Positions 1,452 through 52,857 of a DNA stretch of 64,000 bases are shown in pieces. How positions within the stretch are numbered: position 1 is the first letter of the stretch; each line of letters starts with the position of its first letter. The notes under the pieces are model-generated. The model did no database searches. It was not told where the DNA came from and saw only the letters and a list, made by a program, of their open reading frames with translations. A program made the position numbers and the translations under genes. The DNA lies in contig CBDFJQ010000002.1 in assembly GCA_965248575.1 (NCBI GenBank), positions 1,367,574 to 1,431,573 on the forward strand, in the 5' to 3' direction. The stretch is from Planctomycetota bacterium. Lineage in GTDB: Bacteria; Planctomycetota; B15-G4.

Positions 1452-5129
<3,678 letters not shown>

Positions 5130-15190: not shown

Positions 15191-15347
15191 GGACGAATCG
15201 GCGAGGAAACCGTGGGGAAATCCTCAGGGCTGTCCAGCGGCGCGGAGCCGTCGGGCAGTGCCGACCTAGAACGGTACACCTCGTAGAATCGAAGTCTCAA
15301 GACACGAAGCGCTTGAGACCGGCGCTCCGCCTTGGGACGGTTGTCCC

Positions 15348-19608: not shown

Positions 19609-21033
19609 TCAGGCCTCGCCAGCGGTGGACAGCAAGCCGATGTAGCGTCGGAAACGCTGCAGCAGCAATTGCGGCCGGCGCAGCTCGCGCATGATGCGCG
19701 AGGGGCGCATGTAGAAGCTCCGGTAGGCCCGGCGGATGGCTGCGGACACCTGCTCGCTGCTCATGACCTTGGCCACACCCACAGGCGTGGTGCCCGTGAA
19801 CTTGTCGAAGTCGAACTCGTCCTCCTGCTCGGCCCGGCTCTCCTTGTAGAGCTTTGTGTCCGGGTACGGCGTCACCACCGTGAACTGGACGGTGTCGGGG
19901 TCGAGGTAGATCGCCAGGTCGATGGTCTCACGTGCCATCGCCGGGGTCTCCTCCGGGAAGCCGATCATGAAGAAGCCGCGCGTGGCAATGCCATGCTTCT
20001 TACAGGACTCCATGACGACCTTGGCGTGCTCGTGGCTCTTGATCTTGCCGCGGCTGTACTTCTTCTGCAGCCCTTCGTTGCCGGCCTCGATGCCGAAGGA
20101 GACCGAGACGCAGCCGCCGCGCGCCATGGCGGCGATGAGCTCGTCGTCCATGGTCTTGATGGCCGTCTCACACTGCCAGAGCACGCCGAGCTTTGCCTGT
20201 TCCAGCATGGCGCTCAGCTCGATGACGCGGTCGCGGTCGTAGGCAAACAAGGGGTCCCGGAACACGATGTTGGTCACACCTTGCTCGTGAACGATTTGTT
20301 TCAGCTCGTCGAACACATTGACGGCTGATCGGCCACGCCACGGAATGCCCTGCGCAACCACGTACCCGCAGTACGTGCAGTTGATGGGGCAACCCCGGGA
20401 GGACTGCACCGTCTGGATGGGCCCCTCCATCGTGGGGATGCGGTACGGCTCCACGGGCAACAGTGCGCGCGAAGGGAAGGGCAAGGCATCCAAGGCGTCA
20501 CCGCGCAACAGCGGGCGGTCCGGGTTGCTGCTGGCCCCGCTCCCACGACGCACCGTCAGGCCATCCACGGCCAGGGGGTCCTCCCCCGCCTCAAGAGCCT
20601 TGAGCATCTGCTCAATGGTCAGCTCCGGCTCGCCGCGCACCACCGCGTCCACCTGCGAACCCGCCATGGCCAGGTCCGGCACCTTGCTGCCCTGGCTGCC
20701 CGTGATGCAGACCACGCTGTCCGGGGACACCTCTTTGATGCGATCGACCAACGCCAGATCCAGCGAGATGGTCGCGCTGGACGTCGCCAGGACCACCAAC
20801 GGCGAGGGGTGGGCCGCCAGTGCCTCCAGCACCACGCTGTCGTCCGATCCGTCCGCCTCGGCGTCCACGACGCTGGCCTGGTGACCCGCCCGCTCCACGA
20901 TGGCCGCCACGTAGAGCAGGTCCAGGGGCGGATAACAGAGCCCTTCACCCACGACCATGCCAAAACCGCCCATGAGCCCTCGGCTCACGCGCTGACTAGG
21001 AGGTGGTGGTGGATTGACGAGCAAGACGTGCAT
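19609..21033 (-). CDS. Cobalamin-binding (class B) radical SAM enzyme
   Basis: N-terminal B12-binding Rossmann-like domain (MHVLLVNPPPP...LLYVAAIVERAGHQASVVD...), then the radical SAM core with the CxxxCxxC cluster motif (SSRGCPINCTYCG) and GGCVSVSFGIE. 474 aa. Confidence 0.85.
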   Translation of the reverse strand: MHVLLVNPPPPPSQRVSRGLMGGFGMVVGEGLCYPPLDLLYVAAIVERAGHQASVVDAEADGSDDSVVLEALAAHPSPLVVLATSSATISLDLALVDRIKEVSPDSVVCITGSQGSKVPDLAMAGSQVDAVVRGEPELTIEQMLKALEAGEDPLAVDGLTVRRGSGASSNPDRPLLRGDALDALPFPSRALLPVEPYRIPTMEGPIQTVQSSRGCPINCTYCGYVVAQGIPWRGRSAVNVFDELKQIVHEQGVTNIVFRDPLFAYDRDRVIELSAMLEQAKLGVLWQCETAIKTMDDELIAAMARGGCVSVSFGIEAGNEGLQKKYSRGKIKSHEHAKVVMESCKKHGIATRGFFMIGFPEETPAMARETIDLAIYLDPDTVQFTVVTPYPDTKLYKESRAEQEDEFDFDKFTGTTPVGVAKVMSSEQVSAAIRRAYRSFYMRPSRIMRELRRPQLLLQRFRRYIGLLSTAGEA

Positions 21034-21200
21034 GGGGCGGCGTGGATCCTATCAGGCTGCTCGCCAGAGTCGACGAGAGGCCTTCTTTCGCGCGTTTTCA
21101 CCACCCAACTTGAGGCATCTAAGTGCGTTGATATCAAAGGCTTAACCAAAGTCATCCAGAAGCACGTCCGAAGAAAGGTGTTCGAAACTTCATTGTCACT
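21034..21200. promoter_or_regulatory. Divergent promoter region with a locally AT-richer stretch, between the rSAM gene and the 1049-aa gene
   Basis: 167-nt intergenic gap between divergently oriented genes. The stretch aacttgaggcatctaagtgcgttgatatcaaaggcttaaccaaagtcatccagaagcacgtccgaagaaaggtgttcgaaacttcattgtcac is markedly less GC-rich than its surroundings. Confidence 0.35.
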
Positions 21201-24200
21201 TTGGACGGAGAGGAGCCGGGCCAGCAAAGCGATCTGCTGGACGACTCCGCGCAAGCCACCTTGAACGACTCACATCGGGCCTCAGCGAGGCCCTTTTTCC
21301 ATTTCGCCGGCGCAGCGACGCTTCTGACCCTCGTGGCCCTGGCCGCCGTGGTCGTGGAGCCCAGCGAGGCCCCGACGTCCTCGTCCGCAGGCATCAACTC
21401 GAGCGCAGCCTTGGCACTTGGCTCTGCAGGCGCAGCCTCAGAACGACCTGGGCTGGAGTTGCCCTCGGACGGTGACCAGGCTCGCAACACCCGGCTGGAG
21501 TTGTTTGACCGGAAGCCTAGCCAAAGCGTGCCGCTGCTCGTGGACGACCCTCAGCTTGGCGCCGAGCTGACGGGCAAGGAACAGAAGAAGCTGAACAAGC
21601 TGGCCAAGAAGTGGGCCAAGACAGGCGGAAAGATCGCCAAGAAGGAAGCGCTCGTGGTTCAGCGCATTGGCGAACTCGCCGCCGCTCAGGCCGCCCTCGT
21701 CGCAGCCAATGCCCTCCCGGACGGAACGCCTGAAGAGCTGACCCAGAAGGCGAAGGCCATCAAGAAGGCCGAGAAGAAGCTGCTCAAGGCACAAAAGAAG
21801 CTGCTCAAGGCACAGACCAAGTTGGTGGGCCTCAACTCCAAGCTCACGGCCTTTGTCGCGGCCATCGATGAGGTCGACCCTGGCTACTTCGAGAGCCAGA
21901 CGGGCCCCCCACCGGAGCCCGATCCGGACCCGACGGGCGAGCCGGACCCCGACCCCGCCACCAACCCCGGACCCGACTTCCAAGGCGCCGGCGTGCCCAC
22001 CCTGCCCGTCTTCGTGCAGGAAGCCCGGCCGAGCAACGGCACGGGGGTCACCCGCGCTGGAGACATCGCCACCTTCGGCATCCCATTCTCCGAGGGAGAC
22101 GTCGGCATCAAGTCGGGCCGCCCCGCCTTGGCCGTGTCCGGTGCGGACTCGTTTCAGTTCCGCACGCTGAAACTCTGGCCCGACGGCAGCGTCCAGTGGG
22201 CGCTCTGCGACCTGCAGACAGATGTCACCGCCGGCGTCATCAGCCAAGGTCTCGTGGTGCTGGGTGGCGACGGCCAATCGGTCCAAGCCAACCTCGCTGA
22301 CGAGAACGGCAGCTCAATCCAGATCGACACCGGCCCGCTGCAGGCGACAGTCCTCAAGACCACGTTCAACTTCCTCGACAGCGTCACCGTCGACGGGACG
22401 CTGCTGGTCGACGGCCCCAGCGGCCGTGGCCTCACGGGGCGGGCACCCAACGGCGACCTGCTGGTCCCAGCCCTGACGACTGTCACGCTGGAAGAGAATG
22501 GCCCCACCCGCGCCATGATCCGCGTGGACGGCACGATGGTGGACCCCGGCGCCGTGAAGTTTGTCGACTTCACCTTGCGCATCGTGGCACGCCGCGGCTC
22601 GCGCGACCTGGAAACGCAGCTCACGGTTCGCAACGCCAACATCGCTCGCCCCCAACACGCGGTGATCGAGTCCCTGGAGCTCTCCGTCGAGAGTCTGCTC
22701 GGGAGCAGTTCTAGCTCGGTGCGCATGGCCGGGCACGCTGGTGAGCACACCGGCATCCTGCTGTCGTCCCTGGACGCACACCTCTACCTGGCCCACACGG
22801 CCACCAACCAGGCGGGGCTGGGCGGGGCGCAGTATGTCCCCCACCTCCCCAACGTCAGCTCGGGGAGCAAGACGTTCACGCAGGAAGGCTACGAGGCCGC
22901 CATCGCCGGCTCCACGCTGCAGTCCCTGGGTAACGAGAACCTCTACCCCGAGCACGGATGGATCGACCTCACTGGCCCGAACGGCGGCGTGACGGTCGGC
23001 ATCCGACAGGCCCCGTACATGTACCCGGTCTCGCTCGAGGCGTACGGTTCGGGCAAGGTCACGGCGGGCATGTTCAGCTCACACAACCCGGCCGACTTCA
23101 CCTTCAGCTGGCAGCAGCACGAAAGCCGTTCGGCGGTGTTCTCGTTCCACACCGGAGTCGCAGCTGACCCCGAGGCTGTCGTGCGCCGGCTGGACTACCC
23201 CGTCGTAGGCCGCTTCGCGGACTACAAGGACTACGACCGCGCGGGCGTCTTTCCGTACCGCCTGCTCACCAAGCAAGAGCAGGAGGAAGCCCTCTCGCTG
23301 ATGGGCATCAACCACAACATCAGCGTGGGCAACAACACCTTCCTCGTCACCAAGTACCTCTACAAGGGGACGACCGGCGGCACGAACAACCACGCGGGCA
23401 TCGAGCTGCACCTCGGCGGCGATTGGTTGCGGCATGGCACAGGCGGCCAATACCTCTCCGCAATGAATCTGGCCCTCTACAAGTCGGAGTGGCAAGTCGC
23501 TCGTTCGGACAACTTCGAGGACGAAGATGATCCGGGCGCCAGCAACGACCAGGTCCCCCACAGCGTGGGCTTCCAGAGTGACGACGAACATCGCTACCGC
23601 GATGGCATGATCCTGGCGTACCACCTCACGGGTGACCGACGCCTGCGCGAAGCCCTCTACGACGAGGCCGAGGTCCTGCAGAGCGTGTCACTCTGGCCCC
23701 ATGAGCGCTCGATGTACCAGACGCTGCGTGCCATGGGCCTGGTGGCGGAGTTCACGGGCGACCCAGCCCTGATCCCCACGCTGCGCGCACGCCTTCAGTA
23801 CATCACGCAACCCACGGTCAACGTCAACACGGCGAGCAGCGGTTGGGGTTGGGAAACCAGTCAGGACGTGGGCCAACGCCGCTACTTCGTCAACAGCTCG
23901 GACAACAAGAACGAGAAGCCGCCGGGGGAGAACTTCCAGTGCCGGGGCTTCATCTCCGCCAGCCTCGGGCCGCTCGGCTACTTCCACGCCGCACGCTTCT
24001 TCGCCTCCAATGACCCTGACGGCATGGCAGCCAGGGGCCGCATGCGCGACCTCTCCTACTGGGCGCGGGAAGAAATCTTCAGCAACGACCCCAACCCGGT
24101 GAATCGCCGCCTCATGTACTCGTACGCCGTGACGCAGCAACAGGTGACGAACTGGGAGAACGTCGACTTCCATCCGATCTTGTTGGGCATGGCGGAGAGC

Positions 24201-24350
24201 TACCTGGACACCACCGACATCGTCTATCTGCTGCGCGGCGCCGACCAGCTCGAATCCGCGCAGGCGCACGGCGATCTCTACCGCTGGAACACGCGCATGG
24301 ACTGCCAGCACTTCCTCGCCATCTACCGCGACTGGGCCCTCTCCCTCTAG
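21201..24350 (+). CDS. Large (1049 aa) membrane-anchored or secreted protein of unknown function (possible polysaccharide-modifying enzyme)
   Basis: N-terminal hydrophobic anchor (FFHFAGAATLLTLVALAAVVV), a Lys-rich coiled-coil (KKLNKLAKKWAKTGGKIAKKEA...KKAEKKLLKAQKKLLKAQTKLVGL), an acidic Pro-rich linker (PPPEPDPDPTGEPDPDPATNPGPD), then an ~800-aa globular region. GC3 bias is consistent with coding. The exact start is uncertain. Confidence 0.55.
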   Translation: MDGEEPGQQSDLLDDSAQATLNDSHRASARPFFHFAGAATLLTLVALAAVVVEPSEAPTSSSAGINSSAALALGSAGAASERPGLELPSDGDQARNTRLELFDRKPSQSVPLLVDDPQLGAELTGKEQKKLNKLAKKWAKTGGKIAKKEALVVQRIGELAAAQAALVAANALPDGTPEELTQKAKAIKKAEKKLLKAQKKLLKAQTKLVGLNSKLTAFVAAIDEVDPGYFESQTGPPPEPDPDPTGEPDPDPATNPGPDFQGAGVPTLPVFVQEARPSNGTGVTRAGDIATFGIPFSEGDVGIKSGRPALAVSGADSFQFRTLKLWPDGSVQWALCDLQTDVTAGVISQGLVVLGGDGQSVQANLADENGSSIQIDTGPLQATVLKTTFNFLDSVTVDGTLLVDGPSGRGLTGRAPNGDLLVPALTTVTLEENGPTRAMIRVDGTMVDPGAVKFVDFTLRIVARRGSRDLETQLTVRNANIARPQHAVIESLELSVESLLGSSSSSVRMAGHAGEHTGILLSSLDAHLYLAHTATNQAGLGGAQYVPHLPNVSSGSKTFTQEGYEAAIAGSTLQSLGNENLYPEHGWIDLTGPNGGVTVGIRQAPYMYPVSLEAYGSGKVTAGMFSSHNPADFTFSWQQHESRSAVFSFHTGVAADPEAVVRRLDYPVVGRFADYKDYDRAGVFPYRLLTKQEQEEALSLMGINHNISVGNNTFLVTKYLYKGTTGGTNNHAGIELHLGGDWLRHGTGGQYLSAMNLALYKSEWQVARSDNFEDEDDPGASNDQVPHSVGFQSDDEHRYRDGMILAYHLTGDRRLREALYDEAEVLQSVSLWPHERSMYQTLRAMGLVAEFTGDPALIPTLRARLQYITQPTVNVNTASSGWGWETSQDVGQRRYFVNSSDNKNEKPPGENFQCRGFISASLGPLGYFHAARFFASNDPDGMAARGRMRDLSYWAREEIFSNDPNPVNRRLMYSYAVTQQQVTNWENVDFHPILLGMAESYLDTTDIVYLLRGADQLESAQAHGDLYRWNTRMDCQHFLAIYRDWALSL

Positions 24351-25084
24351 GCGCCGCCATCGGCCTCGAGGGGCTTGCGCAACACGCCGTAGAGCGAGAC
24401 ACCAAAGGGCAGGTCCAGCCGCTTCTCGATGGCGATCTCTGTGCGAGTGATGAGCCCTGCCAGCCACTCGGCAGGCGCAGGCATGGGCACCGCGAAGTCC
24501 GACGTGGCTTCCTCAGGCGGTGTGGGCGAGAGCCCGCGCAATTTGCGCAGCGCCCAGACCGGAGGGAAGAGCGCCATCGAGCTGTAGCTCATGCGCTCCG
24601 TGACGAAGCCCGCTTGCTCGAGCCGCCCCCGCAGTTGCGGGCGGCGGTAGCGTCGATGGTGGTGATAGGCCTCATCGTGAGGGCTCCACAAGGCCATGAA
24701 GGCGGGGACCGTGGCGACCAGGACGCCACCGGGGCGCAGCACCCGGTAAACCTCGCGCATGGCCGCCACGTCGTCCTCGAAGTGCTCGAAGGCATCCAGC
24801 GCCAACACCACATCGAAGCCGGCTTTGCGGAAGGGAAGCTCGAGCGCATCCCCTCGGACGATGCGATCGATCCCTCGCTCCCCGCACAGTCGGATCGTCT
24901 CCTCGGAGATGTCGATCCCCCTGATCTCTCCGTAGTCGGCGAGAAAACGGAAGCTCATGCCCGTGGCGCAGGCGAGGTCCAGGATCTGTAGCGGCCCCTG
25001 ACGGGTCACGTAACGGTCCAAGGCCGCGCGCACGAGGGCCCGCCGTCCTTGGTACCACCAATGAGTTTCCTCAATGGCGAACAT
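24347..25084 (-). CDS. Class I SAM-dependent methyltransferase
   Basis: ORF 24347..25345; likely start MFAIEETHWWYQGRR (ATG complement 25082-25084). Motif I ILDLACATGM and a post-I acidic residue GIDISEE. 245 aa. Its stop overlaps the stop of the convergent 21201..24350 gene (CTAG). Confidence 0.8.
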   Translation of the reverse strand: MFAIEETHWWYQGRRALVRAALDRYVTRQGPLQILDLACATGMSFRFLADYGEIRGIDISEETIRLCGERGIDRIVRGDALELPFRKAGFDVVLALDAFEHFEDDVAAMREVYRVLRPGGVLVATVPAFMALWSPHDEAYHHHRRYRRPQLRGRLEQAGFVTERMSYSSMALFPPVWALRKLRGLSPTPPEEATSDFAVPMPAPAEWLAGLITRTEIAIEKRLDLPFGVSLYGVLRKPLEADGGA

Positions 25085-25104
25085 GCGATCGAACTCGGCA
25101 GTGT

Positions 25105-26304
25105 TCACGGGGTGCCGTGTGCTCCACCGGGGCCAGCTACTCTGCCGTCCGACGCCGGTGCTTCCCCATCGGTGGTGCTCTTGTTGCGGGGGTCCACGGG
25201 GCCTCCATGCTTCTCCATGGCGATGATCTTGCGGGTGACCGCGATCATGAACAGGAAGCCACCAGCGAAGATCAGGTAACGGTAGGGGGCGCTGGTCTGG
25301 CGCGCCAGGATCCCGAGGTACGCGATGATCAACGCCAGGCCCCACAGGATCACGACGGCCTCTGCGCTGCTGAACCCACCTCGCACCAAGCGATGGCTCA
25401 GGTGGTGGCAGTCACCCAGGTACACCGGCCGCTTCTCCTTGATCCGCATGAAGACCACGAAGGCCGCATCGAAGAGCGGAATGCCCATGAACAAGACGGC
25501 GGGGATCAGGTGGCTGGCGCCGAAGTCGTGACTGCCAACGCCCATGAAGCCCTTGACCAGGTCGAACTGCACCCACGCCATCCAGAACCCGATGAACATG
25601 CTGCCCGTGTCGCCCAGGAAGACCCGGCTGCGCGGAAAGTTGTAGGGCATGAAGCCCAGGACGGCGGCGAGCAGCACGACGGCCACGGTCATGGACCTGT
25701 AGCTGTCCGTGTTGGACATGTAGAGGATGGCCGCCGCGAAGGAGATGACCGACAGACCGGACATCAGACCGTTCATGTTGTCCGAGAAGTTGAAGCTGTT
25801 GACGATGGTCAGATACCAACCCAGGAAGAAGAGCTGGTAGAGCCATTGCTCTGGACTCCCGCCGCCTGAGATCAGGTCTCTCAAAGTCGGCAGCATGAGC
25901 ACGAGCACGCCCACGATCTGCCCCAACAGCTTGGGCTCGAAGCCCATGGAGTCCTTGAAGATGTCGTCAACCAGCCCGATCAGGAAGATGACGATGCTGC
26001 CCGCTATCACGAAGCTGATGACGGAGAAGCGTAGTCCTTCATCACCCAGCTGGGACTCGGATTGGGTCCAGACCACGGCCAGGCCCGCCATGACGCCGCA
26101 GACGACACCCAGCCCGCCCAGCAAGGGGGTCACCTTCTCGTGGGTCTTGCGGCCCCCAGGCTTGTCCACGATCCCAAAGCGCCGTGCCAGGACGAGGAAG
26201 AGCGGAACGGTGACAAGAGCCACCGCAAGAGCCGCGCCAAAGCCCAAGGCAGCAATCCGAAGAACGGGTTCGTCGAACAAGGAGGAGGTGTCCCGGAAGT
26301 CCAA
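25105..26304 (-). CDS. Polyprenyl-phosphate N-acetylhexosamine-1-phosphate transferase (GT4/MraY-WecA family; initiating transferase)
   Basis: 11-TM protein with WecA/MraY signatures: GIVDKPGGRKTHEKVTPLLGGLG, LIGLVDD, NSFNFSDNMNGL, VFLGDTGSMFIGF. 399 aa. Confidence 0.85.
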   Translation of the reverse strand: MDFRDTSSLFDEPVLRIAALGFGAALAVALVTVPLFLVLARRFGIVDKPGGRKTHEKVTPLLGGLGVVCGVMAGLAVVWTQSESQLGDEGLRFSVISFVIAGSIVIFLIGLVDDIFKDSMGFEPKLLGQIVGVLVLMLPTLRDLISGGGSPEQWLYQLFFLGWYLTIVNSFNFSDNMNGLMSGLSVISFAAAILYMSNTDSYRSMTVAVVLLAAVLGFMPYNFPRSRVFLGDTGSMFIGFWMAWVQFDLVKGFMGVGSHDFGASHLIPAVLFMGIPLFDAAFVVFMRIKEKRPVYLGDCHHLSHRLVRGGFSSAEAVVILWGLALIIAYLGILARQTSAPYRYLIFAGGFLFMIAVTRKIIAMEKHGGPVDPRNKSTTDGEAPASDGRVAGPGGAHGTP

Positions 26305-26373
26305 GGTGACTCTATCCCGATCGGAGAACCGCGGCCAGCTCTAGAGCCTGTCCGCTCCCAAATCCCGGCGCGC

Positions 26374-27444: not shown

Positions 27445-27475
27445 GACGAAAGCTTCGAGAGGTGGTTCGGCGGCA

Positions 27476-28603
27476 TCAGGCGGACAGATGTTCGGCGTCC
27501 CGGTCACCATCGGCCAGATGCCAGCGGGAGATGTCGCCATCCTCCGGACGAGCATCCTTGCGACAAGCACGCACGATGAATGGGAAACGATCCCTGAACA
27601 GTTTACTGCCCGAGGGCTCAGGCCAGCCGAGCTCTCGCAAGGTGGCGGCTGCTGGGTGGTGTAGAAAACAGAGGGCCGTGGCCTCCAGCATCCCGCGTGC
27701 ATGGCCCATGGCGGTGAAGGCCAGCAGCAGCTCCCGTCGAGCCGCCTCGTCCCGGGCGACGTGATCCACAAGGAAGGCATTGCCACCGTGGAACTCCACG
27801 ACGAGCAGGCCGTCGAGCCGCGCAGCCCGCGCCCCGCCCGCTGCTGCCGACACAGCCTCGCCAGGGGCGGGCAACACGTAGCACTCCTGGCGGCCGCTTG
27901 GGGTGTCCACGTAGCGCCAGTTGAGCCAAGCCGCGTCGCGCTCCCCCACCAGCCCCTGGCAGGGCATGGCCGCTTCGCAGAGCTCATCGACGGATTCGGT
28001 CAATCCAACGACCCCATCGAAGCGAGCGACCCGGGTCAGGGGAGAGTGCCAAGCCTCGAATCTCTTGCGATCCCGCCGAAAGCGCCAGCCATCCAGGAGC
28101 GGCGCCAACTGCGCAGCCAGTGGCGCCACGCGCCCCAGTCGACGCAACCCCCGCTCGCTGCGATACCCGTAGCGGAACACGGAGGCTTGTCCGATGTCTT
28201 CCCAGCCGTTGCCCAGGAAGCCCGTGTAGGAGAGACGCCCTGAATAAGCGAACACCCACGGGATGCCCATCTCCCCGGCGGCCTCACACACGATGTCATC
28301 CAGCCCCGTGAAGATGCCCTGCCGTCGGGCCTCCGGAGCGACCATGGCATCGGAAGCCTGCATCAGGAGCAGGGGCTGGCCGTCCCGCCGGAATCTCCGC
28401 GGCACATAGCTGTAGGCACCCACCACCTTTCCCCGCCCGTCCACGGCCACACGCGAGATGGCCGGACCATGGGGGTTCTTTGCATACTTCCAGTCGAAGG
28501 TGTCGACCTGCTTGTCCTTCCGGAAGCAAGCGTTGAACAGCCGACACTGGTCCTCGCGGTCAGCCGCACCGGCCTCGCGCCAGGTCCAGGGGCGTTCGCT
28601 CAT
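27476..28603 (-). CDS. GNAT/FemAB-like acyltransferase (Acetyltransf_6-type, common in EPS loci)
   Basis: ORF 27476..28693; likely start MSERPWTWREAGAADREDQCRLFNACF... (ATG complement 28601-28603, overlapping the upstream gene stop as ATGA). Pattern FDWKYAKNP...VAVDGRGKVVGAYSYVPRRF resembles the BioF2/FemAB-like GNAT fold. Tentative. Confidence 0.5.
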   Translation of the reverse strand: MSERPWTWREAGAADREDQCRLFNACFRKDKQVDTFDWKYAKNPHGPAISRVAVDGRGKVVGAYSYVPRRFRRDGQPLLLMQASDAMVAPEARRQGIFTGLDDIVCEAAGEMGIPWVFAYSGRLSYTGFLGNGWEDIGQASVFRYGYRSERGLRRLGRVAPLAAQLAPLLDGWRFRRDRKRFEAWHSPLTRVARFDGVVGLTESVDELCEAAMPCQGLVGERDAAWLNWRYVDTPSGRQECYVLPAPGEAVSAAAGGARAARLDGLLVVEFHGGNAFLVDHVARDEAARRELLLAFTAMGHARGMLEATALCFLHHPAAATLRELGWPEPSGSKLFRDRFPFIVRACRKDARPEDGDISRWHLADGDRDAEHLSA

Positions 28604-29829: not shown

Positions 29830-29842
29830 GGCAATCCGCCCT

Positions 29843-31096: not shown

Positions 31097-31176
31097 CGCC
31101 GCTCGACGGGGCCCCGTCGCCCCGACCGTCGTTCAACCTGTCCTGCAAGCCGTCCTGCAACAACGACCACGTCAGC

Positions 31177-32634: not shown

Positions 32635-32651
32635 TCTACCACTCGGTCAGT

Positions 32652-40595: not shown

Positions 40596-40698
40596 AGGTC
40601 ACTCCAGGGGGAACCGATCGCGCATCGTAGATCCTTGGGCGGGGCCAGACTACGGCGCGCTAGAGAGCAGCTCCTCTCGACTGATAACCTCCCCCAGC
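40596..40698. promoter_or_regulatory. Divergent promoter region between the two AP-superfamily genes
   Basis: 103-nt gap between a minus-strand operon start (40595) and a plus-strand gene start (40699). Confidence 0.35.
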
Positions 40699-43600: not shown

Positions 43601-43857
43601 GCACCGGCGCCGCCTATCCGGCGGACATCGACCCGACGGCACGCGGAGCGGCGCGGCGCATCTGGGGCGAGCGTTCGGCCACCGGCAAGACCTTGTTGAC
43701 GATCAAACCGGATGCCGGTCAAGGCGCGCGCGGGCTCCGCTTTGATCTTGCGGCTGATCCGGATGAACTCCACGGCCAGGCGGCTGACCCCTTCGCCTTG
43801 CGACGGGTGGACACCTGGCGCAGACGCGGCCGACCGGCGAGCGTTGATCTGCCGTAG
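40699..43857 (+). CDS. Large polytopic membrane protein with a C-terminal alkaline-phosphatase-superfamily (sulfatase-like) domain
   Basis: 1052 aa. The N-terminal ~560 aa hold many TM helices (Wzy/O-antigen-ligase-like hydrophobic profile). The C-terminal domain begins PDIVLVTISSLRVDRVN...GLASLLSGLSP and contains APHGTSLSEHGAYFMHGPDLFE, both AP-superfamily-like. The exact start (40699, 40723 or 40738) is uncertain. Confidence 0.6.
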   Translation: MSEGHDRHMRRNSMPLLLSITGLVSALVWPGSVLAWLPLLLCPGWGLARLVSVIDRNFGVLGSALCLSPLVLGSLTLVSAAAGWPSDRLALAVHITSVGLCLLGRIRLAVYDRWLGRQPPIDGPMPWWPEKLWVCVTIVVVAVAAGAEVVPLDEAAAGSPRLVVASEALAWLQGAEDPMHAGRPLPMGSLLSGASAALAAGAGLHPLESTQLLSWSALVACLVLAAESISRLWGNRGAVLAMAAVLLGLNPLALAFLLGSDGVRIDSQHLTADFSPQLTTAIAPFLDAAPLALALAFTAMLLSSTLSILRRSSYHVPRLAGLATLGLVLTDARAALLLLPGWFAGLALAHLACRDSKDNDPQLNSSVRRPGEPLILRAPFWRPALHIALGAAVGFALVDLPTYDVQLSRVVVWGLVAAVGPGCILFMPGIRHLNASPGREAYFFLPAVAVAALLGMTVQFDGDQGNLVVRLLALVLAVPAANGAMKVIELHGLRATLLLIFLTLITLPGPLVVLREARDTARPLHCVDHDSVRWAELDEGIASALALVHERSTQDAVLILDELPDAHDLYALYLLSGRPLVTIPKSTLLDSSNAYQRQPETLSRPERTGSRRDLVSRLSHGDGTALARLRGSRGLQGREMWAVHEGDSWPGFHPQRQASALLVERAELPDIVLVTISSLRVDRVNADSMPALDARSKQGLLFETAITPTPSTGPGLASLLSGLSPVEHDVRDDGRRLSADIPGLQRQLALRGYRSSAVVALGSDSGLLRGFEQVRAESTLDAEHLVDLATQQLSLADPRPVFLWVHFSDLELPFEVPEHARTAITGPHDFPDSSNLDATRYGVAPFPPSANHRGEVDLKTGVAQYDALVGMVDRELGRLLQSIPEDDLLAVTAPHGTSLSEHGAYFMHGPDLFEPSIHVPLIVVGGGMPVSRSGSLTSLEDIPDLLLMGRLPVRERVMLESAWRPGLGTGAAYPADIDPTARGAARRIWGERSATGKTLLTIKPDAGQGARGLRFDLAADPDELHGQAADPFALRRVDTWRRRGRPASVDLP

Positions 43858-43879
43858 CCATGCCCTCTGCCGACGGGCC

Positions 43880-43982
43880 GGCTGGATCTGTCTTTGGACA
43901 GCAGATCTGCTGCTCAGACAACGAGGCAAACGGACGCCTCGAAAACTCGCCTCAGATCTGCTGTCCAAAGACAGATCCAGCC
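43880..43982. repeat. Perfect 30-bp inverted repeat with a 43-nt spacer at a convergent gene junction
   Basis: Left arm ggctggatctgtctttggacagcagatctg (43880-43909) and right arm cagatctgctgtccaaagacagatccagcc (43953-43982) are exact reverse complements. Each arm also contains the self-palindrome cagcagatctgctg / cagatctg. Confidence 0.9.
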
Positions 43983-43998
43983 TCATCGGTAAGAGGCT

Positions 43999-45891
43999 TC
44001 AGGCTTCGGTCCAGGTCTTCTTCCAGCTGCCTTGGACGGTCAGGGTGACGGGAGTGCCGGCGGCGCGTAGCTCCACCAGGTGGCCCCGTTTCGTGAGGTC
44101 GGCGCCATCGGCCTGGACGTCCACGTCCTGGAGTGCGACCGGGAGTTGGTAGCGCGCGAGGCCGTGGACATTCTCCAACCTCAAGACGTCCGTCAGGCGC
44201 ACGCGATCCTCTTCGAACGTGTAGTGGCGTTCCGTGCCGGTGCCGGGGACCCGCTGGCCCCGACCATCCGCCAGCGCCCCTTTGAAGGTGACGGACTGGC
44301 CGTCGAACTCATGCTCGGTCTGGATGTCCTGGTGCGCGGCGCACCAGGGGCTCGACTCCTGCACGCTGCGCACGAGGACGTGCCGCCAGGGGTAGGCCAG
44401 GCCGCGCAGCAGACCGTGGCGCGCCTTCAGTTCGATGCTGGTGACGTAGAGTCGGAAGCGGACGTCGCTCTTCTCTGCCTTCAGCCAGCGCACCCAGCGT
44501 GCGGTACGGGACCCAGCTTTCGACGGGCGCAGGAGAAAGCTCCCGGGTCGCTCACGCTGGAAGCGCACGCGCGGCACGTCTTCCCGGCCTGGTGTGCGAC
44601 CGTCGCTGGCCCATACCAGGGACTGCAGGCTTCCGCCGCCCAGGTCGCACCCGAACAGGTTGCTTGCCCCCAGGCTCTTGCCACGCAAGATTGCGGTGTA
44701 GGCGATGCGCTCCACGTGCAGCAGGCCCGAGTGCGCCAGGTCGATCGTCATGGGTTCGCGCGGGGCAGCGCGCAAGGACACATCGGACAGGACCCTCGCC
44801 GCCCAGGCGGCGTGCCCCGTCCAGAAGATGCGGCACTGGAAGTTCACACCGGCGCCGTGATGGCTGTCTGCGCCTCCGTCCAGGGGATCGATGTGGGCGA
44901 CCCACTCCTCCATGGCGCGACCGGCTTCATTGGCGAACATCGGTTCGTTCAACACCCGAGAGCCCGTCTGCAGCGCGTACGCGTCAAAGGGGTGGCTGGC
45001 GACTTCGTAGGCGCTGACCCAGTACCAGGCCTTGGCCTCGTTGTGCAGGACCTTCCGACCGAGCCCATCCCGGAAGGCCACAAGCGCCCGCAAGCTGGTC
45101 GTCAAGCGCTCGCGAGCCCAGTCACTCAGGCTGGCATCCACACCCTCCATCCGCTCCAGCACCTCGTGCACATAGAGCACGAAGCCCGGCGTCCGGGAGT
45201 GGTAGAAGGTCGAGGTGTCTGCCAACCCTGGATGGGTGCAGTGGTCCGTGTGCGCAGGGATGTACGGGGCCACCCCGTCCGGGGCCAACTCAGCGAGGGC
45301 TGACGCACAGCCCGTGAGAGCATCTTGCGCCCAGTCCTTGCGCCCCAAGCAGCGCGCGGCGCGGGCCACGCCCGTGGCCGCCCACAGGCGCTGCGCGGTA
45401 ATAGGCCGCTCCCGAGCGGCATGCCTCAGATAACCCTCAACGTGTCGTTCCAAAGCATCCCGGCAGCGGGCCGTCTCGGATTCATTGAACAGCTCCGGCA
45501 CGTCCTCCAGCAGCGTGGCGATGGAGTCCGCGCACGCCCCGCCATCAATGGCATTGGTCGACGCGTTGCGGTGGTCAATGCGTCCCGGAAGGAAGACGGG
45601 CACCTTGCTCTGGGGGTCCAGACCCAGGTGATCCACGCTGCGGAGCACCTGGCGCTTGCCGCGCTCGAGGAACTCCTCCTCGCGCGTGTTGCGCCAGGCC
45701 TCGAGGTTGATCACCGCGCCATACGTCAGCTTCCCCGTGTGCTCCACCCGATGGCGCGGGCACAGGCATTCGCCGTCGGGGCCCGTGTACTTCTCGAAGA
45801 AGTTGGACAGGCCCCGCAGGATCCCCAAGCGCAGTTGCACGTGATTCTTCATGCGCGTCTTGCCGCTACCAGGCGCAGGAGAAAGGCTCAC
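43999..45891 (-). CDS. Hypothetical 630-aa protein (Cys/His/Trp-rich; possible polysaccharide lyase/hydrolase-like accessory enzyme)
   Basis: Long ORF with good GC3 bias, translationally coupled to the upstream GT4 (ATGA overlap at 45888-45891). No motif I can assign with confidence. Confidence 0.5.
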   Translation of the reverse strand: MSLSPAPGSGKTRMKNHVQLRLGILRGLSNFFEKYTGPDGECLCPRHRVEHTGKLTYGAVINLEAWRNTREEEFLERGKRQVLRSVDHLGLDPQSKVPVFLPGRIDHRNASTNAIDGGACADSIATLLEDVPELFNESETARCRDALERHVEGYLRHAARERPITAQRLWAATGVARAARCLGRKDWAQDALTGCASALAELAPDGVAPYIPAHTDHCTHPGLADTSTFYHSRTPGFVLYVHEVLERMEGVDASLSDWARERLTTSLRALVAFRDGLGRKVLHNEAKAWYWVSAYEVASHPFDAYALQTGSRVLNEPMFANEAGRAMEEWVAHIDPLDGGADSHHGAGVNFQCRIFWTGHAAWAARVLSDVSLRAAPREPMTIDLAHSGLLHVERIAYTAILRGKSLGASNLFGCDLGGGSLQSLVWASDGRTPGREDVPRVRFQRERPGSFLLRPSKAGSRTARWVRWLKAEKSDVRFRLYVTSIELKARHGLLRGLAYPWRHVLVRSVQESSPWCAAHQDIQTEHEFDGQSVTFKGALADGRGQRVPGTGTERHYTFEEDRVRLTDVLRLENVHGLARYQLPVALQDVDVQADGADLTKRGHLVELRAAGTPVTLTVQGSWKKTWTEA

Positions 45892-46934
45892 GGGAGACGC
45901 CTCATGTCCGCAACAAGACGTGGTACGAGCTTGTCGAGATCGTGTTCGGCCAAGACGCGCCCACGGAGTTCCTGCCCCAGCGACTCCCGATCGCCTGGGG
46001 ACAGGGAGAGCAGGCGCTCCAGGCGCATGGCCAGGCCTTGGATATCACCCTTCGAGAACATCAGCGTCGCCGCCAGCTCGGGGCCGAGCACCCGTTCAAA
46101 GGACTCGTTGCAGGTCAGCACAGGTGTCTCGCACGCCATGGCCTCGAGCACGACCTTGTCCACGCTGCCGGTGCGACTGGCGTTGACCAGGACTCGAGCC
46201 CGACGCATCACGTCGGCAATGTGGGGATAGCTCACAGCCCCCAGCAGCCGCACGCCACCCAAGGCAGCCGCCTGGTGCCCCAAGCTCGAACGGTAGGAGA
46301 CATCCCGATCGAGAAGGACATCTCCAGCGATCTCCACCTGCGTTTCGCCATCGAGCAGACTCACCGCCTCAAGGATCTCGTGGTGCCCCTTGCTCGGCGC
46401 CAGACGCCCTACCGACAGTACATCCACGGGGCGCAAGGCATCACCCGGCCCGAAGTGTTCACAGTCGATGCCGTGGCCGGTGACCACGCGCTTGTCTGTG
46501 GCCGAGGCCAAGCGGAAGGACTCCTCGGAAGCGCTGAACACCCTGCGCACCAAAGGCACGGCCATCTTGAGCGCCCGATCCACCCCCTTGTGCGTGTACC
46601 AGAGGTAGAGGGGAATCCTGCGGGGAACCGTGACGGGCGCGGCGTAGAGAACGAACTTGGGCACCATGTGCGCCAAGAGCGCGTCCGGCCGTCGCTCACC
46701 TCGAAGCCCCATCAGCACGCGGACCAGCCGGGCCTCCATGGCGAGCAGGCCCGCCCCCCGCTCCTTGCCCAGCGACCGGACCTCGACGTTGGCGGGTAGC
46801 TGGGTGTCCCCGACCCGCTGAGCGATGACCGTGAGCTGCTCCACATTCTGGGCGAAGGATTCGCACCAGCGATGGAAGAAGCCCAGAACGGCATCCTGCC
46901 GGTCGAGCACTTGCGTCAGGAGGACGATGTGCAT
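45888..46934 (-). CDS. Glycosyltransferase family 4
   Basis: 348 aa. C-terminal LVNASRTGSVDKVVLEAMACETPVLTCNES is a GT4-like E-x7-E region. Confidence 0.8.
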   Translation of the reverse strand: MHIVLLTQVLDRQDAVLGFFHRWCESFAQNVEQLTVIAQRVGDTQLPANVEVRSLGKERGAGLLAMEARLVRVLMGLRGERRPDALLAHMVPKFVLYAAPVTVPRRIPLYLWYTHKGVDRALKMAVPLVRRVFSASEESFRLASATDKRVVTGHGIDCEHFGPGDALRPVDVLSVGRLAPSKGHHEILEAVSLLDGETQVEIAGDVLLDRDVSYRSSLGHQAAALGGVRLLGAVSYPHIADVMRRARVLVNASRTGSVDKVVLEAMACETPVLTCNESFERVLGPELAATLMFSKGDIQGLAMRLERLLSLSPGDRESLGQELRGRVLAEHDLDKLVPRLVADMRRLP

Positions 46935-48196
46935 GACGGCGCAGCATGACCGCTGTTCGCCATGGTCTCCAGCCCGGTCTCCAGGCCACTTTCCCGCACG
47001 GCTCTCAGCGCCTCATCGGTCACCAGGTCGGGGTCGATGGGAATCACCGACCCGCCCATGACCTCGGCGTAGATTTCTGCGAGGCGAGCCGCCACGGCCT
47101 GGGCCGTCATCTGGGGTCGCGGACGCAGGCGTGCAGCGGCCCCCATCGCCTGCCGCAGCTCGGGCTCCGCCGCCAGTCTTTCCAGCCCGGCTGCCAGACC
47201 GTTCACGCTGTCGGCTTCCGCGAGCAGGCCGTCCACACCGTGTCGAACCAACTCGGGCACTCCACCCACGGCACTGGCCACGACGGGCACACCCGCCTCC
47301 AAGGCTTCAACCAGGACTTGCGGCAAGCCCTCCCGGCGCGACGACTGCAGGAGCATGTCCAAGGCTCCGTAGACATCCCCCAACTGGGCCCGCCCCGGCA
47401 GGTGAAGGGCCCCCGGCAAGCCAGACAGCTGGTCACGGGCAGACTGATTGCCGCTCCCTTCGCCCACGACGAGCAGGCGCAGCGGTGCCCCTGCGGCCCG
47501 TGCCCGCCCGACCGCCTGCACGGCGAGGGGCAGGTTCTTCACCGGTTCCAGGCGACCGACCCAACCCACCAGCAGCTCGTCGGGGCGGACTCCCAGTTCT
47601 TCCCGCAACGCCGCCCCCGCAAGCTGGTCGGGCGCGGTCCGTTGGGCGTCGATGCCCGGAGGGATGATGGCGTATTGATCCCGGCGACCGACGTGGTGTT
47701 GGTCCACCAACTCGTCGCGCACGGCCTCGGCCACGGCGATCAGCTTGTCCGTGCGGCGGGCCAGATAGGATTCCGTCAGCGCGAAGGCCCGCGACGTCAG
47801 GCTGCCGAAGTAGCCCGAGAGAACGTGCCCATGGTAGGTGTGTACCCGACGGGGAGCGGGGTGCAGGGCTCCCGCCGCCAGCCGGCCGAGAACCCCGGCC
47901 TTGGCAGTGTGGGTGTGGACGAGAGCGGGTTTCACCTCACGCACCAGCCGACGCAGCGCCACGGCCGCCGCGATGTCCTGCCGAGGGCGCACGGCCCGGC
48001 CCAACTCGGGAATCACGTGCACGCGCATGCCCGCCTCGCGGGCCTCATCAATCAGGTCGGCTTCACCCTCTTCGACGGAACCCGTGGCCAGGACCGTGCG
48101 CCAGCCGTGACAGCGCAAGGGTGCCGTGACCCGGATCACATGGCGCGCCGGCCCACCCATGTTCAGGCGAGCGATGACGCGCAACAGCTCAGGCAT
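46916..48196 (-). CDS. Glycosyltransferase family 4
   Basis: 426 aa. LLQSSRREGLPQVLVEALEAGVPVVASAVGGVPELVRHGVDGLL is the GT4 signature. Confidence 0.8.
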   Translation of the reverse strand: MPELLRVIARLNMGGPARHVIRVTAPLRCHGWRTVLATGSVEEGEADLIDEAREAGMRVHVIPELGRAVRPRQDIAAAVALRRLVREVKPALVHTHTAKAGVLGRLAAGALHPAPRRVHTYHGHVLSGYFGSLTSRAFALTESYLARRTDKLIAVAEAVRDELVDQHHVGRRDQYAIIPPGIDAQRTAPDQLAGAALREELGVRPDELLVGWVGRLEPVKNLPLAVQAVGRARAAGAPLRLLVVGEGSGNQSARDQLSGLPGALHLPGRAQLGDVYGALDMLLQSSRREGLPQVLVEALEAGVPVVASAVGGVPELVRHGVDGLLAEADSVNGLAAGLERLAAEPELRQAMGAAARLRPRPQMTAQAVAARLAEIYAEVMGGSVIPIDPDLVTDEALRAVRESGLETGLETMANSGHAAPSCTSSS

Positions 48197-49115
48197 GTTG
48201 AAGCGCCTGCTTCAGGATGTCGTCCAGGGCCCAACGCGGCCGGAAGTCGATGCGGCGTCGCAAGGCCTTCAGGTGGGGTGCCCGGCGCGGCAAGTCCTCA
48301 CGGCCTGCTTCGGCTGGTGTGCACGTCACGCGCGCGCCGCGTCCAGCCAACTCCGCCATGCGCTGGGCCAGACCTGCAATGCTCGTGCGCTCTTCGGAAC
48401 CCAGCTCGATGACTTCGAAGCCTTCCGCCAGGGGTGCTCGCAGCAGTGACAGGGTCGCCGAGACGCAATCATCCACGTGCAGGAAGGAACGCTGCTGGAC
48501 GCCCGTGCCGTGCACCGGCATCTCCTGGCCAGTGCGGGCGGCGACGGCCATGGCCGGCAGGACCATCCCGGGAGCGCATTGTCCAGGCCCCACGATGTTG
48601 AACGGGCGCACGATGGTGACCGGCACCCCACCGGGTTGAGCCGCTTGCTCCGACAGGAGGGCTTCCGCCGCACGCTTTGCTTCGGCGTAGATGGAGCGCG
48701 GCCCCCGCCGCCCAGCATCTGTCACTTCGCTGGTGGAGAAGAAGAGCAGCGGAGCGCCCGCCCTGCGGGCAACAGCCAACGCGACGTCCGTCCCCTCAAG
48801 AATCACGGAGCCGGTGCGGGCGGGGTCGGCCAGAACAGCCTCCACGCCCACCACGGAAGCGAGGTGTACCACCGCATGCACACGGGTGGCACCGTTCATG
48901 TCAGCGGCGAACGCCCCCGCGGCCGTCTCCACGGGTGCCTGTCGCCGGACGTCCCCCACGTGGACCCGCAAGTGCGGGTGCTCTGGAAGCGGCAAGCTGC
49001 TGGGAGCCGAGAAGTCATCCAGGACGCTGACCCGGTCGCCAGCCTGCAAGAGCCGGCGCACCAAGTGCGTGCCGATGAACCCAGCACCTCCGGTGACGAG
49101 CAACGTACGTGTCAT
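48189..49115 (-). CDS. NAD-dependent sugar epimerase/dehydratase (SDR family)
   Basis: MTRTLLVTGGAGFIGTHLVRRLL (GxxGxxG) and a YxxxK equivalent (SIYAEAKRAAE). 308 aa. Confidence 0.85.
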   Translation of the reverse strand: MTRTLLVTGGAGFIGTHLVRRLLQAGDRVSVLDDFSAPSSLPLPEHPHLRVHVGDVRRQAPVETAAGAFAADMNGATRVHAVVHLASVVGVEAVLADPARTGSVILEGTDVALAVARRAGAPLLFFSTSEVTDAGRRGPRSIYAEAKRAAEALLSEQAAQPGGVPVTIVRPFNIVGPGQCAPGMVLPAMAVAARTGQEMPVHGTGVQQRSFLHVDDCVSATLSLLRAPLAEGFEVIELGSEERTSIAGLAQRMAELAGRGARVTCTPAEAGREDLPRRAPHLKALRRRIDFRPRWALDDILKQALQHA

Positions 49116-52773: not shown

Positions 52774-52857
52774 CTCCCTCGCGCCGAAGCGGCGCAGTCT
52801 ATCAACGCGCGACGAAGATCCTCAGCAAGGCTGCCAGGTCCCTTGGCCGGTCGAGGC

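Follow-up and report, generated by a model that had tools for sequence, protein, structure and literature searches.

In a 64,000-nucleotide stretch of DNA from a Planctomycetota bacterium (contig CBDFJQ010000002.1 of assembly GCA_965248575.1; the whole stretch is called the window here), positions 19,609 to 49,115 hold a locus for glycan assembly and decoration built around a 12-gene operon. With a probability that we put at about 0.6, this is a native locus for a conserved planctomycete envelope glycoconjugate that is assembled on polyprenyl phosphate and flipped by a Wzx-family protein. Within this reading a narrower proposal is offered tentatively, with the odds still somewhat against it, in which a radical S-adenosylmethionine (radical-SAM) enzyme with a B12-binding domain (rSAM1), a CE4 de-N-acetylase and a GNAT acyltransferase form a triad that radically remodels a de-N-acetylated amino sugar on the polyprenol-linked oligosaccharide by ring contraction, deoxygenation or C-methylation. 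This would be the first case of a radical-SAM step in a Wzx-dependent pathway for an envelope glycan and would give the lineage a signature sugar, and it would stand beside two further new enzyme types, a Thr-dependent phosphotransferase derived from the sulfatase fold and a fusion of a GT-C domain with an alkaline phosphatase (AP)-superfamily domain.

Twelve consecutive minus-strand genes between 24347 and 40595 make up one tightly packed operon, as judged from the listing of open reading frames (ORFs) and the frame-specific GC content at third codon positions. They are transcribed in the order Sulf1, GT4a, GTC, GT4b, Wzx, rSAM1, GT4c, psrSAM, GNAT, CE4, WecA-like and MTase (Table 1). The domains that a first-pass annotation, made by a model from the sequence alone, had assigned to these twelve genes were recovered with Pfam, and its view that WecA, Wzx and multiple GT4 glycosyltransferases (GTs) form the core of a polyprenol-linked, Wzx-dependent glycan pathway was upheld. 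The initiating enzyme has at least nine transmembrane (TM) segments, carries a DDxxD-type motif along with the motifs VDDIFKD and NSFNFSDNMNGL, and scores 118 bits with the NCBIfam model ECA_wecA (cut-off 326). The tailoring genes set around this core are an unusual collection, as had been noted and as the domains of the operon confirm. In keeping with the claim that no characterised locus has this combination, no NCBIfam equivalog was found and a literature search returned no paper on the cluster.

The locus is strongly conserved between species. With rSAM1 as the query against one genome per species, 16 loci were recovered at 65-91% identity, nearly all in metagenome-assembled genomes (MAGs) labelled Planctomycetota or Phycisphaerales, with the next matches at no more than 29%. 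In all 10 of the loci long enough to hold the operon, each from a different species-level MAG, the whole operon was collinear (TBLASTN with 20 window proteins), rSAM1 being the best-conserved gene of the locus with 79-91% identity in the 10 species and Wzx the least conserved with 33-73% (means in Table 1). A comparison of gene neighbourhoods, proposed in the first-pass annotation, thus found conserved synteny in relatives and no match to a characterised polysaccharide locus. A protein search placed further rSAM1 homologues in tiers at ~65, 53 and 48-50% identity, all the named ones being planctomycete. In the 66% tier the L056 locus reads Sulfatase-GT4-PMT_2-GT4-Wzx-rSAM-GT4-GNAT-CE4-WecA-MTase, followed by a convergent 806-aa gene and an rSAM2 homologue, which is the gene set of the window locus minus psrSAM. 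A rearranged version of this set is carried by L054. In the 48% tier L057 and L058 have a GT2 gene, an unk630-like protein of 596-621 aa, (Sulfatase), GT4, GT4, Wzx, GT4, rSAM, GNAT and CE4. In L053 only rSAM-GNAT-CE4 is kept. The three genes of the triad always lie within 7 kb of each other, usually adjacent and usually beside GT4s and Wzx, with GNAT downstream of the rSAM1 homologue in every locus that reaches far enough. As the triad is retained in these deeper lineages, L053 included, it is taken to be the functional core of the locus. Radical-SAM matches outside Planctomycetota (L017-L052) had no neighbours in common with the locus.

The invariance of rSAM, GNAT and CE4, with the flippase as the most variable component, is the opposite of what is seen in a serotype-variable O-antigen or capsule island. 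The comparison with O-antigen and exopolysaccharide (EPS) loci made in the first-pass annotation does not hold in this respect, since such conservation across species is atypical for these islands and points to a conserved core glycoconjugate. Its suggestion of a native, lineage-specific system fared better, being borne out by the cross-species collinearity, by a GC content of 0.64-0.70 inside the locus against 0.62-0.69 outside (window ~65%), with no discontinuity, and by the absence of transposase and integrase genes among the window ORFs. A horizontally acquired island was rejected on the same evidence (no GC step, no mobility genes, conserved synteny), and the locus is native and old.

Table 1. 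Features of the locus, ordered by position in the window, with mean amino-acid identity over the 10 collinear loci where calculated.
Feature	Description	Position	Strand	Basis	Mean identity (%)
rSAM2	second B12-binding-domain radical-SAM enzyme	19609..21033	-	Pfam; CPINCTYC at residue 215	
big1049	membrane-anchored protein, TM 34-52	21201..24350	+	PcRGLX_2nd 27.9 bits, PcRGLX_1st 23.6 bits, both just above cut-off	
MTase	class I SAM-dependent methyltransferase, last operon gene	24347..25108	-	Methyltransf_11 1.2e-22; GTG 25108	72.6
WecA-like	WecA/MraY-family polyprenyl-phosphate HexNAc-1-phosphate transferase	25105..26304	-	Glycos_transf_4 1.3e-27	63.7
CE4	CE4 (NodB-type) de-N-acetylase, 352 aa	26374..27432	-	Polysacc_deac_1 (PF01522) 2.2e-22	68.5
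GNAT	GNAT acyltransferase (Acetyltransf_9)	27476..28603	-	Pfam 6.4e-10; ATG 28603	58.1
psrSAM	B12-domain/radical-SAM-derived protein without CxxxCxxC	28600..29829	-	no Pfam match; homology (see text)	53.4
GT4c	GT4 glycosyltransferase	29843..31096	-	Glycos_transf_1 9e-27 and Glyco_transf_4	66.3
rSAM1	B12-binding and Radical_SAM enzyme	31177..32631	-	Radical_SAM 1.3e-26, B12-binding 6e-20, CPFRCVFC at residue 209	83.6
Wzx	Wzx-family flippase	32652..34100	-	Polysacc_synt 1.1e-14; at least 11 TM segments; GTG 34100	51.5
GT4b	GT4 glycosyltransferase	34097..35329	-	Glycos_transf_1 1.8e-28; ATG 35329	68.8
GTC	polytopic PMT_2-like protein, 616 aa	35326..37176	-	PMT_2 26.3 bits against gathering score of 26.1	54.2
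GT4a	GT4 glycosyltransferase	37177..38373	-	Glyco_trans_1_4 and Glycos_transf_1; GTG 38373	64.4
Sulf1	membrane-anchored AP-superfamily enzyme, 741 aa, first operon gene	38370..40595	-	Pfam Sulfatase (PF00884) 2.3e-46	57.8
Sulf2_1052	GT-C-fold and AP-superfamily fusion	40699..43857	+	N-terminal membrane domain ~1-520, C-terminal AP domain	
Inverted repeat	perfect 30-nt inverted repeat	43880..43982	.	arms 43880-43909 and 43953-43982, 43-nt spacer	
unk630	(alpha/alpha)-toroid and beta-sandwich protein, last gene of second operon	43999..45891	-	predicted structure	
GT4d	GT4 glycosyltransferase	45888..46934	-	Pfam; GTGA overlap with unk630 start	
GT4e	GT4 glycosyltransferase	46916..48196	-	Glycos_transf_1 9.9e-30; 8- and 19-nt overlaps with neighbours	
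SDR epimerase	NAD-dependent sugar epimerase/dehydratase of the short-chain dehydrogenase/reductase (SDR) type, GalE-like, first gene of second operon	48189..49115	-	Epimerase 1.8e-39	

The junctions of the operon had been described as overlapping or separated by 0-20 nt throughout, which holds for eight of the eleven, with gaps of 43, 69 and 80 nt at the remaining three. GTGA overlaps join Sulf1 to GT4a (at 38373), GT4b to Wzx (34100) and the WecA-like gene to MTase (25108), and ATGA overlaps join GTC to GT4b (35329) and psrSAM to GNAT (28603), giving five 4-nt overlaps overall. GT4a and GTC abut at 37176, 17-20 nt separate Wzx from rSAM1 (before 32631) and 13 nt separate GT4c from psrSAM (before 29829). 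The larger gaps lie between rSAM1 and GT4c (80 nt, before 31096), GNAT and CE4 (43 nt, before 27432, the CE4 start being set by orthologues) and CE4 and the WecA-like gene (69 nt, before 26304), and no promoter-like or terminator-like site was found in any of these three; over the operon the promoter and terminator scan gave matches only inside genes, at or below chance level. Gene starts were put at the stop of the preceding gene and then compared with orthologue N-termini. Overlaps of up to 512 nt between the longest ORFs are artefacts that come from alternative frames poor in stop codons, and a real 512-nt overlap of GNAT and CE4 was rejected as the orthologues begin at ATG 27432.

Two of the radical-SAM proteins, rSAM1 in the operon and rSAM2 outside it, had been annotated as cobalamin radical-SAM tailoring enzymes. 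Both carry a B12-binding domain (PF02310, cut-off 32.1 bits; rSAM1 71.7 bits, rSAM2 37.3 bits) and an intact CxxxCxxC motif, but their closest relatives AprD4, HpnJ and BchE are non-methylases and AprD4 is cobalamin-free. The closest solved structure is AprD4 (6fd2) for rSAM1 (4e-18) and for rSAM2 (1.5e-40), followed by the glutamine C-methyltransferase QCMT (9ccb). The substrate of AprD4 is paromamine, such that the enzyme works on the ring of an amino sugar whose amine is free. Cobalamin is not bound by AprD4, even though it has a Rossmann-like domain (PMC12931638), and HpnJ and BchE belong to the non-methylases (PMC9204698), so that a cobalamin-dependent methylase is only one of several options for the two proteins. 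Among NCBIfam models, for which the relevant radical-SAM cut-offs are 480-750 bits, rSAM1 scored 172 bits with BchE (cut-off 481), 163 with HpnJ (577.6), 161 with ApyD and 98 with AprD4 (500), while rSAM2 scored 198 with HpnJ (577.6) and 170 with AprD4 (500); neither is thus an HpnJ, BchE or AprD4 equivalog by the curated cut-offs. The rSAM2 homologue has the same relative position in L056 and adjoins the operon in L005.

The third protein, psrSAM, had been called a catalytically dead radical-SAM paralogue, and an alignment of 11 orthologues agrees with a homologue that has lost CxxxCxxC, there being no cysteine at the expected position. Its origin is seen in a BLASTP match to rSAM2 (E=1e-6) and in the match of the 11-orthologue profile to the barrel core of AprD4 (6fd2, E=1.3e-4), with an N-terminus that resembles a Rossmann domain. 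Three dispersed conserved cysteines remain (C261, C281 and C380), and psrSAM could conceivably hold a non-canonical metal site. It is confined to the closest clade, being absent in L015, L054, L056, L057 and L058, and is an accessory of that clade only.

The acyltransferase and deacetylase proposed for the operon were confirmed by Pfam matches to Acetyltransf_9 and Polysacc_deac_1. The NodB motifs of CE4 are intact (TFDDGY, HTVNH and AYPYG) and its best PDB match is 6dq3 (E=3.7e-15), which is PplD, the de-N-acetylase of the WecA-type-installed GlcNAc primer of streptococcal rhamnopolysaccharides. In the case of GNAT a single-sequence search of the PDB gave no match and a profile search gave weak GNAT matches only, among them aminoglycoside N-acetyltransferases and Eis. 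As these matches are weak, an Eis-like identity was not adopted beyond Acetyltransf_9.

Two membrane AP-superfamily enzymes had also been described at the locus. The fold is present in both, but the 741-aa protein, Sulf1, has threonine at the formylglycine site and the 1052-aa protein, Sulf2_1052, is a GT-C fusion. In Sulf1 ~4 N-terminal TM helices precede a sulfatase-fold domain with strong likeness to arylsulfatases and choline sulfatases (PDB sulfatase matches down to 1.7e-28), the best PDB match being choline sulfatase 7oz8, in which S-T-P-A-R aligns with T-W-T-S-F of Sulf1. The formylglycine motif C/S-x-P-x-R is lacking, with Thr242 at the formylglycine position, and a true sulfatase function was rejected for this reason. 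The surrounding segment QAPFTWTSFGSxLTGKYPRxHG does not vary among 11 orthologues whose overall identity falls as low as 38%, and the metal ligands are retained (the first-strand Asp in VVVD, and SDHG). The EptA and CptA models cover only ~55 residues of Sulf1, at E ~1e-5. A threonine nucleophile combined with N-terminal TM helices is the signature of phosphotransferases of the LtaS, EptA and GacH type. These shared features suggest that Sulf1 is probably a phosphotransferase, acting by transfer of a phospho-group and not by hydrolysis of sulfate. In GacH the nucleophile is T530 (PMC8807736). In L009, L011, L013 and L014 Sulf1 is missing from the head of the operon and the GT-C/AP fusion and 630-aa genes lie directly upstream of GT4a instead, so that some members of the clade can do without the Thr-type AP enzyme.

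The gene for Sulf2_1052 is divergent from the 12-gene operon, with a 103-nt spacer. Its N-terminal domain has no Pfam match at E<5, but has the GT-C fold, with structural matches to ArnT and ALG12 (PbgA/YejM being also among the matches), and D55 in its first loop is invariant. When 1.84 billion cluster representatives were searched exhaustively with HMMER, only 17 close relatives of this membrane domain were found, so that there is no bridge from it to a named family. The nucleophile position of the AP domain varies (T, L, E, T), and the domain resembles the non-catalytic PbgA/YejM. GTC has at least eight TM segments with PHRYVPDD after TM1, in which D35 is invariant and D36 is found in at least 90% of 16 orthologues; the orthologues in L054 and L056 also match PMT_2. 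No PDB match to GTC was found by sequence or profile search, and hhalign found no relation between GTC and Sulf2_1052. From its family match and conserved acidic residues GTC is probably a PMT_2-like GT-C glycosyltransferase. The first-pass annotation had suggested that the polymerase and export step might be carried by the GT-C-like protein or the 1052-aa protein; the GT-C fold of the latter, the only unassigned polytopic domain in the window, would fit periplasmic action, but GT-Cs are transferases and not polymerases of the Wzy type or exporters.

The genes flanking the operon are all as first described, namely rSAM2, the 1049-aa, 1052-aa and 630-aa proteins, two GT4s and an SDR epimerase extending to 49115. 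The last four genes, in the order Epimerase-GT4e-GT4d-unk630, form a second coupled operon (43999-49115; overlaps of 8, 19 and 4 nt) on the same strand as the 12-gene operon, with nothing but the 1052-aa gene, in opposite orientation, between the two. The epimerase reaches 84.6 bits with the NCBIfam GalE model, below its cut-off. Of the two large proteins annotated as unknown, the 630-aa protein has a predicted lyase/epimerase fold and the 1049-aa protein has PcRGLX-like domains. For unk630 no Pfam family was found (Alginate_lyase at E=0.022 in a relaxed search), and all 85 source-named homologues are planctomycete hypotheticals, most homologues carrying no name. Its AlphaFold2 model (pLDDT 92.4) matched GAGase II/VII (PL35-type), PL33, PL8, PL17 and human dermatan-sulfate epimerase in Foldseek (E 1e-10 to 1e-7, TM-score ~0.5, with only 8-12% sequence identity to these matches), and the predicted fold is that of the uronate polysaccharide lyase/C5-epimerase class. 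The PcRGLX domains of big1049 are rhamnogalacturonan-lyase-like, and a profile search of the PDB gave no match. Its gene is convergent with the 12-gene operon, with orthologues in seven loci, and in L056 the convergent 806-aa gene takes its place as a weakly similar counterpart (22% identity). The inverted repeat in the convergent gap between Sulf2_1052 and unk630 is unique in the window, has no T-run and has small palindromes in its arms (CAGATCTG); it is probably a bidirectional terminator hairpin.

From these components a pathway can be proposed in which the WecA-type enzyme would load HexNAc-1-phosphate onto the lipid carrier and the cytoplasmic GT4s, three in the operon and two in the second operon, would lengthen the chain. 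CE4 would then de-N-acetylate one N-acetyl-hexosamine, and rSAM1, with or without cobalamin, would remodel the free-amine sugar by C-methylation, deoxygenation or ring contraction, with rSAM2 as a possible second catalyst and the cysteine-less psrSAM as a possible partner. GNAT would re-N-acylate the amine, the class I methyltransferase would supply a methyl group and Wzx would flip the lipid-linked glycan. On the periplasmic side the two GT-C-type enzymes may add sugars from polyprenyl-phosphate donors or pass the glycan onwards to its final acceptor, Sulf1 may add a phospho-substituent taken from phospholipid, for example glycerol phosphate or phosphoethanolamine, and the lyase-fold 630-aa and 1049-aa proteins may epimerise, trim or release the product. 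The logic of the triad has two precedents in which a glucosamine is the target of a radical-SAM enzyme once a GT and a deacetylase have acted, HpnI/HpnK/HpnJ in hopanoids (PMC13459092, PMC9204698) and the AprD4 aminoglycoside pathways.

A number of observations weigh against this pathway or parts of it. CE4 has an N-terminal hydrophobic helix and its nearest relative, PplD, is extracellular; were CE4 extracytoplasmic, the order CE4, radical-SAM, GNAT would break, as the radical-SAM and GNAT enzymes are cytoplasmic. In L053 the triad lacks GT, WecA and Wzx genes as neighbours. No Wzy, Wzz or Wza was found among the window ORFs with Pfam and NCBIfam, as already recorded in the first-pass annotation, although these may lie elsewhere in the genome. 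Likewise the window has no WaaL ligase, LCP enzyme or oligosaccharyltransferase of a known family, and no GT2 polyprenyl-phosphate sugar synthase to serve the GT-C enzymes; in L057 and L058, however, the cluster opens with a GT2 gene. The absence of a visible signal peptide in unk630 is odd for a polymer-processing lyase. Finally, no NCBIfam model reaches its curated cut-off, such that every specific activity is inferred.

The missing polymerase and the conservation would fit a system of general protein glycosylation or en-bloc transfer, in which a lipid-linked oligosaccharide of ~6-8 sugars is flipped by Wzx and moved whole to proteins or another acceptor by a GT-C-type enzyme serving as oligosaccharyltransferase, with no polymer being made. 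The window has no Wzy, Wzz or Wza, the two GT-C-type enzymes have conserved acidic residues in the first loop, GT-C being the fold of PglB, AglB, STT3 and the PMTs, the GT number (WecA and five GT4s) suits a defined oligosaccharide, and conservation this high across species is typical of general glycosylation or core glycans and not of O-antigens. We nevertheless regard it as unlikely, since the matches of the GT-C proteins are to ArnT, ALG12 and PMT_2, which take monosaccharides from polyprenyl phosphate, with none to PglB or STT3, the two lyase-fold proteins suggest a polymeric, uronate-containing substrate, and no acceptor proteins or sequons are identifiable from the window. A pathway for a glycolipid head group, with GT4, CE4 and radical-SAM (and GNAT) giving a hopanoid, as in the formation of the cyclitol ether by HpnI-HpnK-HpnJ, or a glycerolipid a head group derived from glucosamine by radical rearrangement, and with WecA and Wzx as secondary additions in some lineages, is improbable. 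It would share its logic with HpnI (GT), HpnK (deacetylase) and HpnJ (B12-domain radical-SAM), HpnJ is the best NCBIfam model for rSAM2 and the second-best for rSAM1, the L053 triad stands alone with no WecA, Wzx or GTs within 10 kb, and a Mla-type lipid-transport operon adjoins the locus at 16301-19604. Set against these, the HpnJ scores of 163 and 198 bits are far from the cut-off of 577.6, the deacetylase here is a CE4 while HpnK is of a different (YdjC-type) family, neither squalene-hopene cyclase nor hpnH is present in the window, and in five independent lineages the triad has Wzx and several GT4s around it.

A further reading, in essence that of the first-pass annotation, is of an ordinary serotype-type O-antigen, capsule or EPS locus with its polymerase and export genes elsewhere, the unusual enzymes being peripheral decoration (C- or O-methyl, acetyl or phospho groups). 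The WecA, Wzx and GT4 core would fit this, as would the best sub-threshold matches of the GT4s, which are to EPS, PEP-CTERM, colanic-acid and Vi-type transferases, and the presence of lyase-type genes, which are common in EPS loci. The chances of this reading are low, however, given that the locus stays collinear, with identities of 50-90%, in at least 10 species as well as in several deeper lineages, that the supposed decoration genes (rSAM1, CE4 and GNAT) are the invariant core with Wzx the most variable, and that there is no GC or mobility signature. That the cluster makes a diffusible natural product, aminoglycoside-like or a glycolipid, through transfer of GlcNAc by GT4, deacetylation, radical deoxygenation of the AprD4 kind and methylation, with N-acetylation as self-resistance, has a very small probability. 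The set of GT4, deacetylase, radical-SAM, MTase and GNAT mirrors aminoglycoside pathways, both radical-SAM enzymes have AprD4 as their closest solved relative and the weak GNAT profile matches include aminoglycoside N-acetyltransferases and Eis, but no 2-deoxy-scyllo-inosose synthase, aminotransferase or other cyclitol gene was found, the envelope is indicated by seven proteins that are polytopic or anchored in the membrane, WecA, Wzx and the two GT-C-type proteins among them, and the locus is a conserved core genomic feature beside housekeeping genes.

The envelope glycoconjugate proposed here can be set beside several known systems. With Wzx/Wzy assembly of O-antigen and enterobacterial common antigen the locus shares an initiator of the WecA/MraY family, cytoplasmic GTs and a Polysacc_synt-family flippase in one operon, but it has no Wzy, Wzz, WaaL or Wza in the window and adds two predicted GT-C-type periplasmic enzymes, an AP-superfamily enzyme, radical-SAM proteins, CE4 and GNAT. 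The Caulobacter holdfast (HfsE/G/J/L, the CE4 HfsH, the N-acyltransferase HfsK and the Wzx HfsF) likewise is a Wzx-dependent GlcNAc glycan, its amino sugar being modified by a CE4 and an N-acyltransferase (PMC5362036, PMC6372794, PMC8449245). A further likeness is that the holdfast is a conserved, non-serotype, adhesin-type glycan, but it relies on a PHPT initiator, on Wzy polymerases (HfsC/I) and on HfsABD export, polymerase and export genes being absent from the window, and it has no radical-SAM, GT-C or AP-superfamily enzymes. The CE4 of the locus scores 32 bits with the HfsH model (cut-off 400) and is no HfsH equivalog by this measure, and HfsK belongs to a different GNAT-related family.

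In the pathway of the streptococcal group A carbohydrate (the WecA-type GacO, GacI/J/K/L, GacH and PplD), GacL is a polytopic membrane glycosyltransferase acting outside the membrane on a lipid-P-sugar donor, a role like that proposed for the GT-C-type proteins of the locus. This pathway has in common with the locus WecA-type initiation, a Wzx-like flippase and a CE4 for the primer GlcNAc, and its GacH, an AP-superfamily enzyme anchored in the membrane that transfers glycerol phosphate by means of a Thr nucleophile, resembles Sulf1 in its putative role (PMC8807736). By sequence, however, arylsulfatases and choline sulfatases are nearer to the AP domain of Sulf1 than GacH or LtaS are, and unlike the locus the group A carbohydrate depends on an ABC transporter for export of its backbone and on LCP enzymes for the link to peptidoglycan, with no radical-SAM or GNAT. 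The hopanoid enzymes HpnI, HpnK and HpnJ follow the same logic as the triad, with GlcNAc being added and de-N-acetylated before a radical-SAM enzyme acts on the glucosamine (PMC13459092, PMC9204698), whereas the locus has a WecA-primed polyprenol carrier and GNAT, and no hopanoid genes. AprD4, the diol dehydratase of apramycin C3'-deoxygenation (6fd2), is the nearest solved relative of rSAM1, rSAM2 and psrSAM, but is cobalamin-free (PMC12931638) and belongs to a soluble natural-product pathway. At the level of whole systems the closest analogues appear to be the Caulobacter holdfast and the group A carbohydrate, neither of which has radical-SAM enzymes. The type of pathway is familiar; the product and several of the enzymes are not, the conserved radical-SAM core is unprecedented and two of the enzyme architectures are unusual.

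The left part of the window (1-11304) holds rpoB, rplL, rplA, rplK, nusG, secE and tuf together with tRNA-Trp and a tRNA cluster (Thr, Gly, Tyr, Thr), which places the glycan locus in a core chromosomal region; other housekeeping genes outside 19.6-49.1 kb include TrpRS. Rfam and tRNA scans of the window found tRNAs only, all outside the locus. An MCE/Mla-type module (16301-19604; MlaE, ABC ATPase and MlaD) directly adjoins the locus on the left, and a second (57709-59750; PqiA and an MlaD-domain protein) lies ~8.6 kb to its right; a link between these modules and the export of a lipid-anchored product is possible. Positions 51073-57521 hold an acyl-CoA synthetase, a ScfR-type regulator (HTH, M78 peptidase and ScfRs), malate synthase and isocitrate lyase, which together make up a unit for the glyoxylate shunt and its regulation that is unrelated to the glycan locus. 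Among the relatives, the operon of L011 is split after the radical-SAM gene, ahead of the next GT4, by a 4.2-kb insertion (11450-15620) that codes for a beta-helix protein and an FG-GAP-repeat protein. In L053 (1239-8791) the triad lies beside genes for alpha-2-macroglobulin and a class A penicillin-binding protein, a known pairing that is probably unrelated to it. A 6.4-kb contig (L004, JBLIMM010000276.1) with an 82% identical rSAM1 and the same neighbours was binned as Pseudohongiellaceae (Gammaproteobacteria), and is most likely a mis-binned planctomycete contig and not a case of horizontal transfer.

Planctomycete envelopes are poorly understood, most such lineages being uncultured, and uncharacterised glycan loci are frequent in MAG-rich phyla. 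That the most constrained gene of this locus is a radical-SAM gene in a collinear pathway points to a structurally important surface molecule. If the triad acts as proposed, radical-SAM sugar chemistry would extend from antibiotics and hopanoids to the assembly of envelope glycans, and the locus would offer three targets for enzymology: a radical-SAM enzyme with a B12-binding domain whose substrate is an amino sugar on a lipid carrier, an enzyme of the sulfatase fold in which threonine replaces formylglycine, and a GT-C/AP-domain fusion that has hardly any relatives in sequence.

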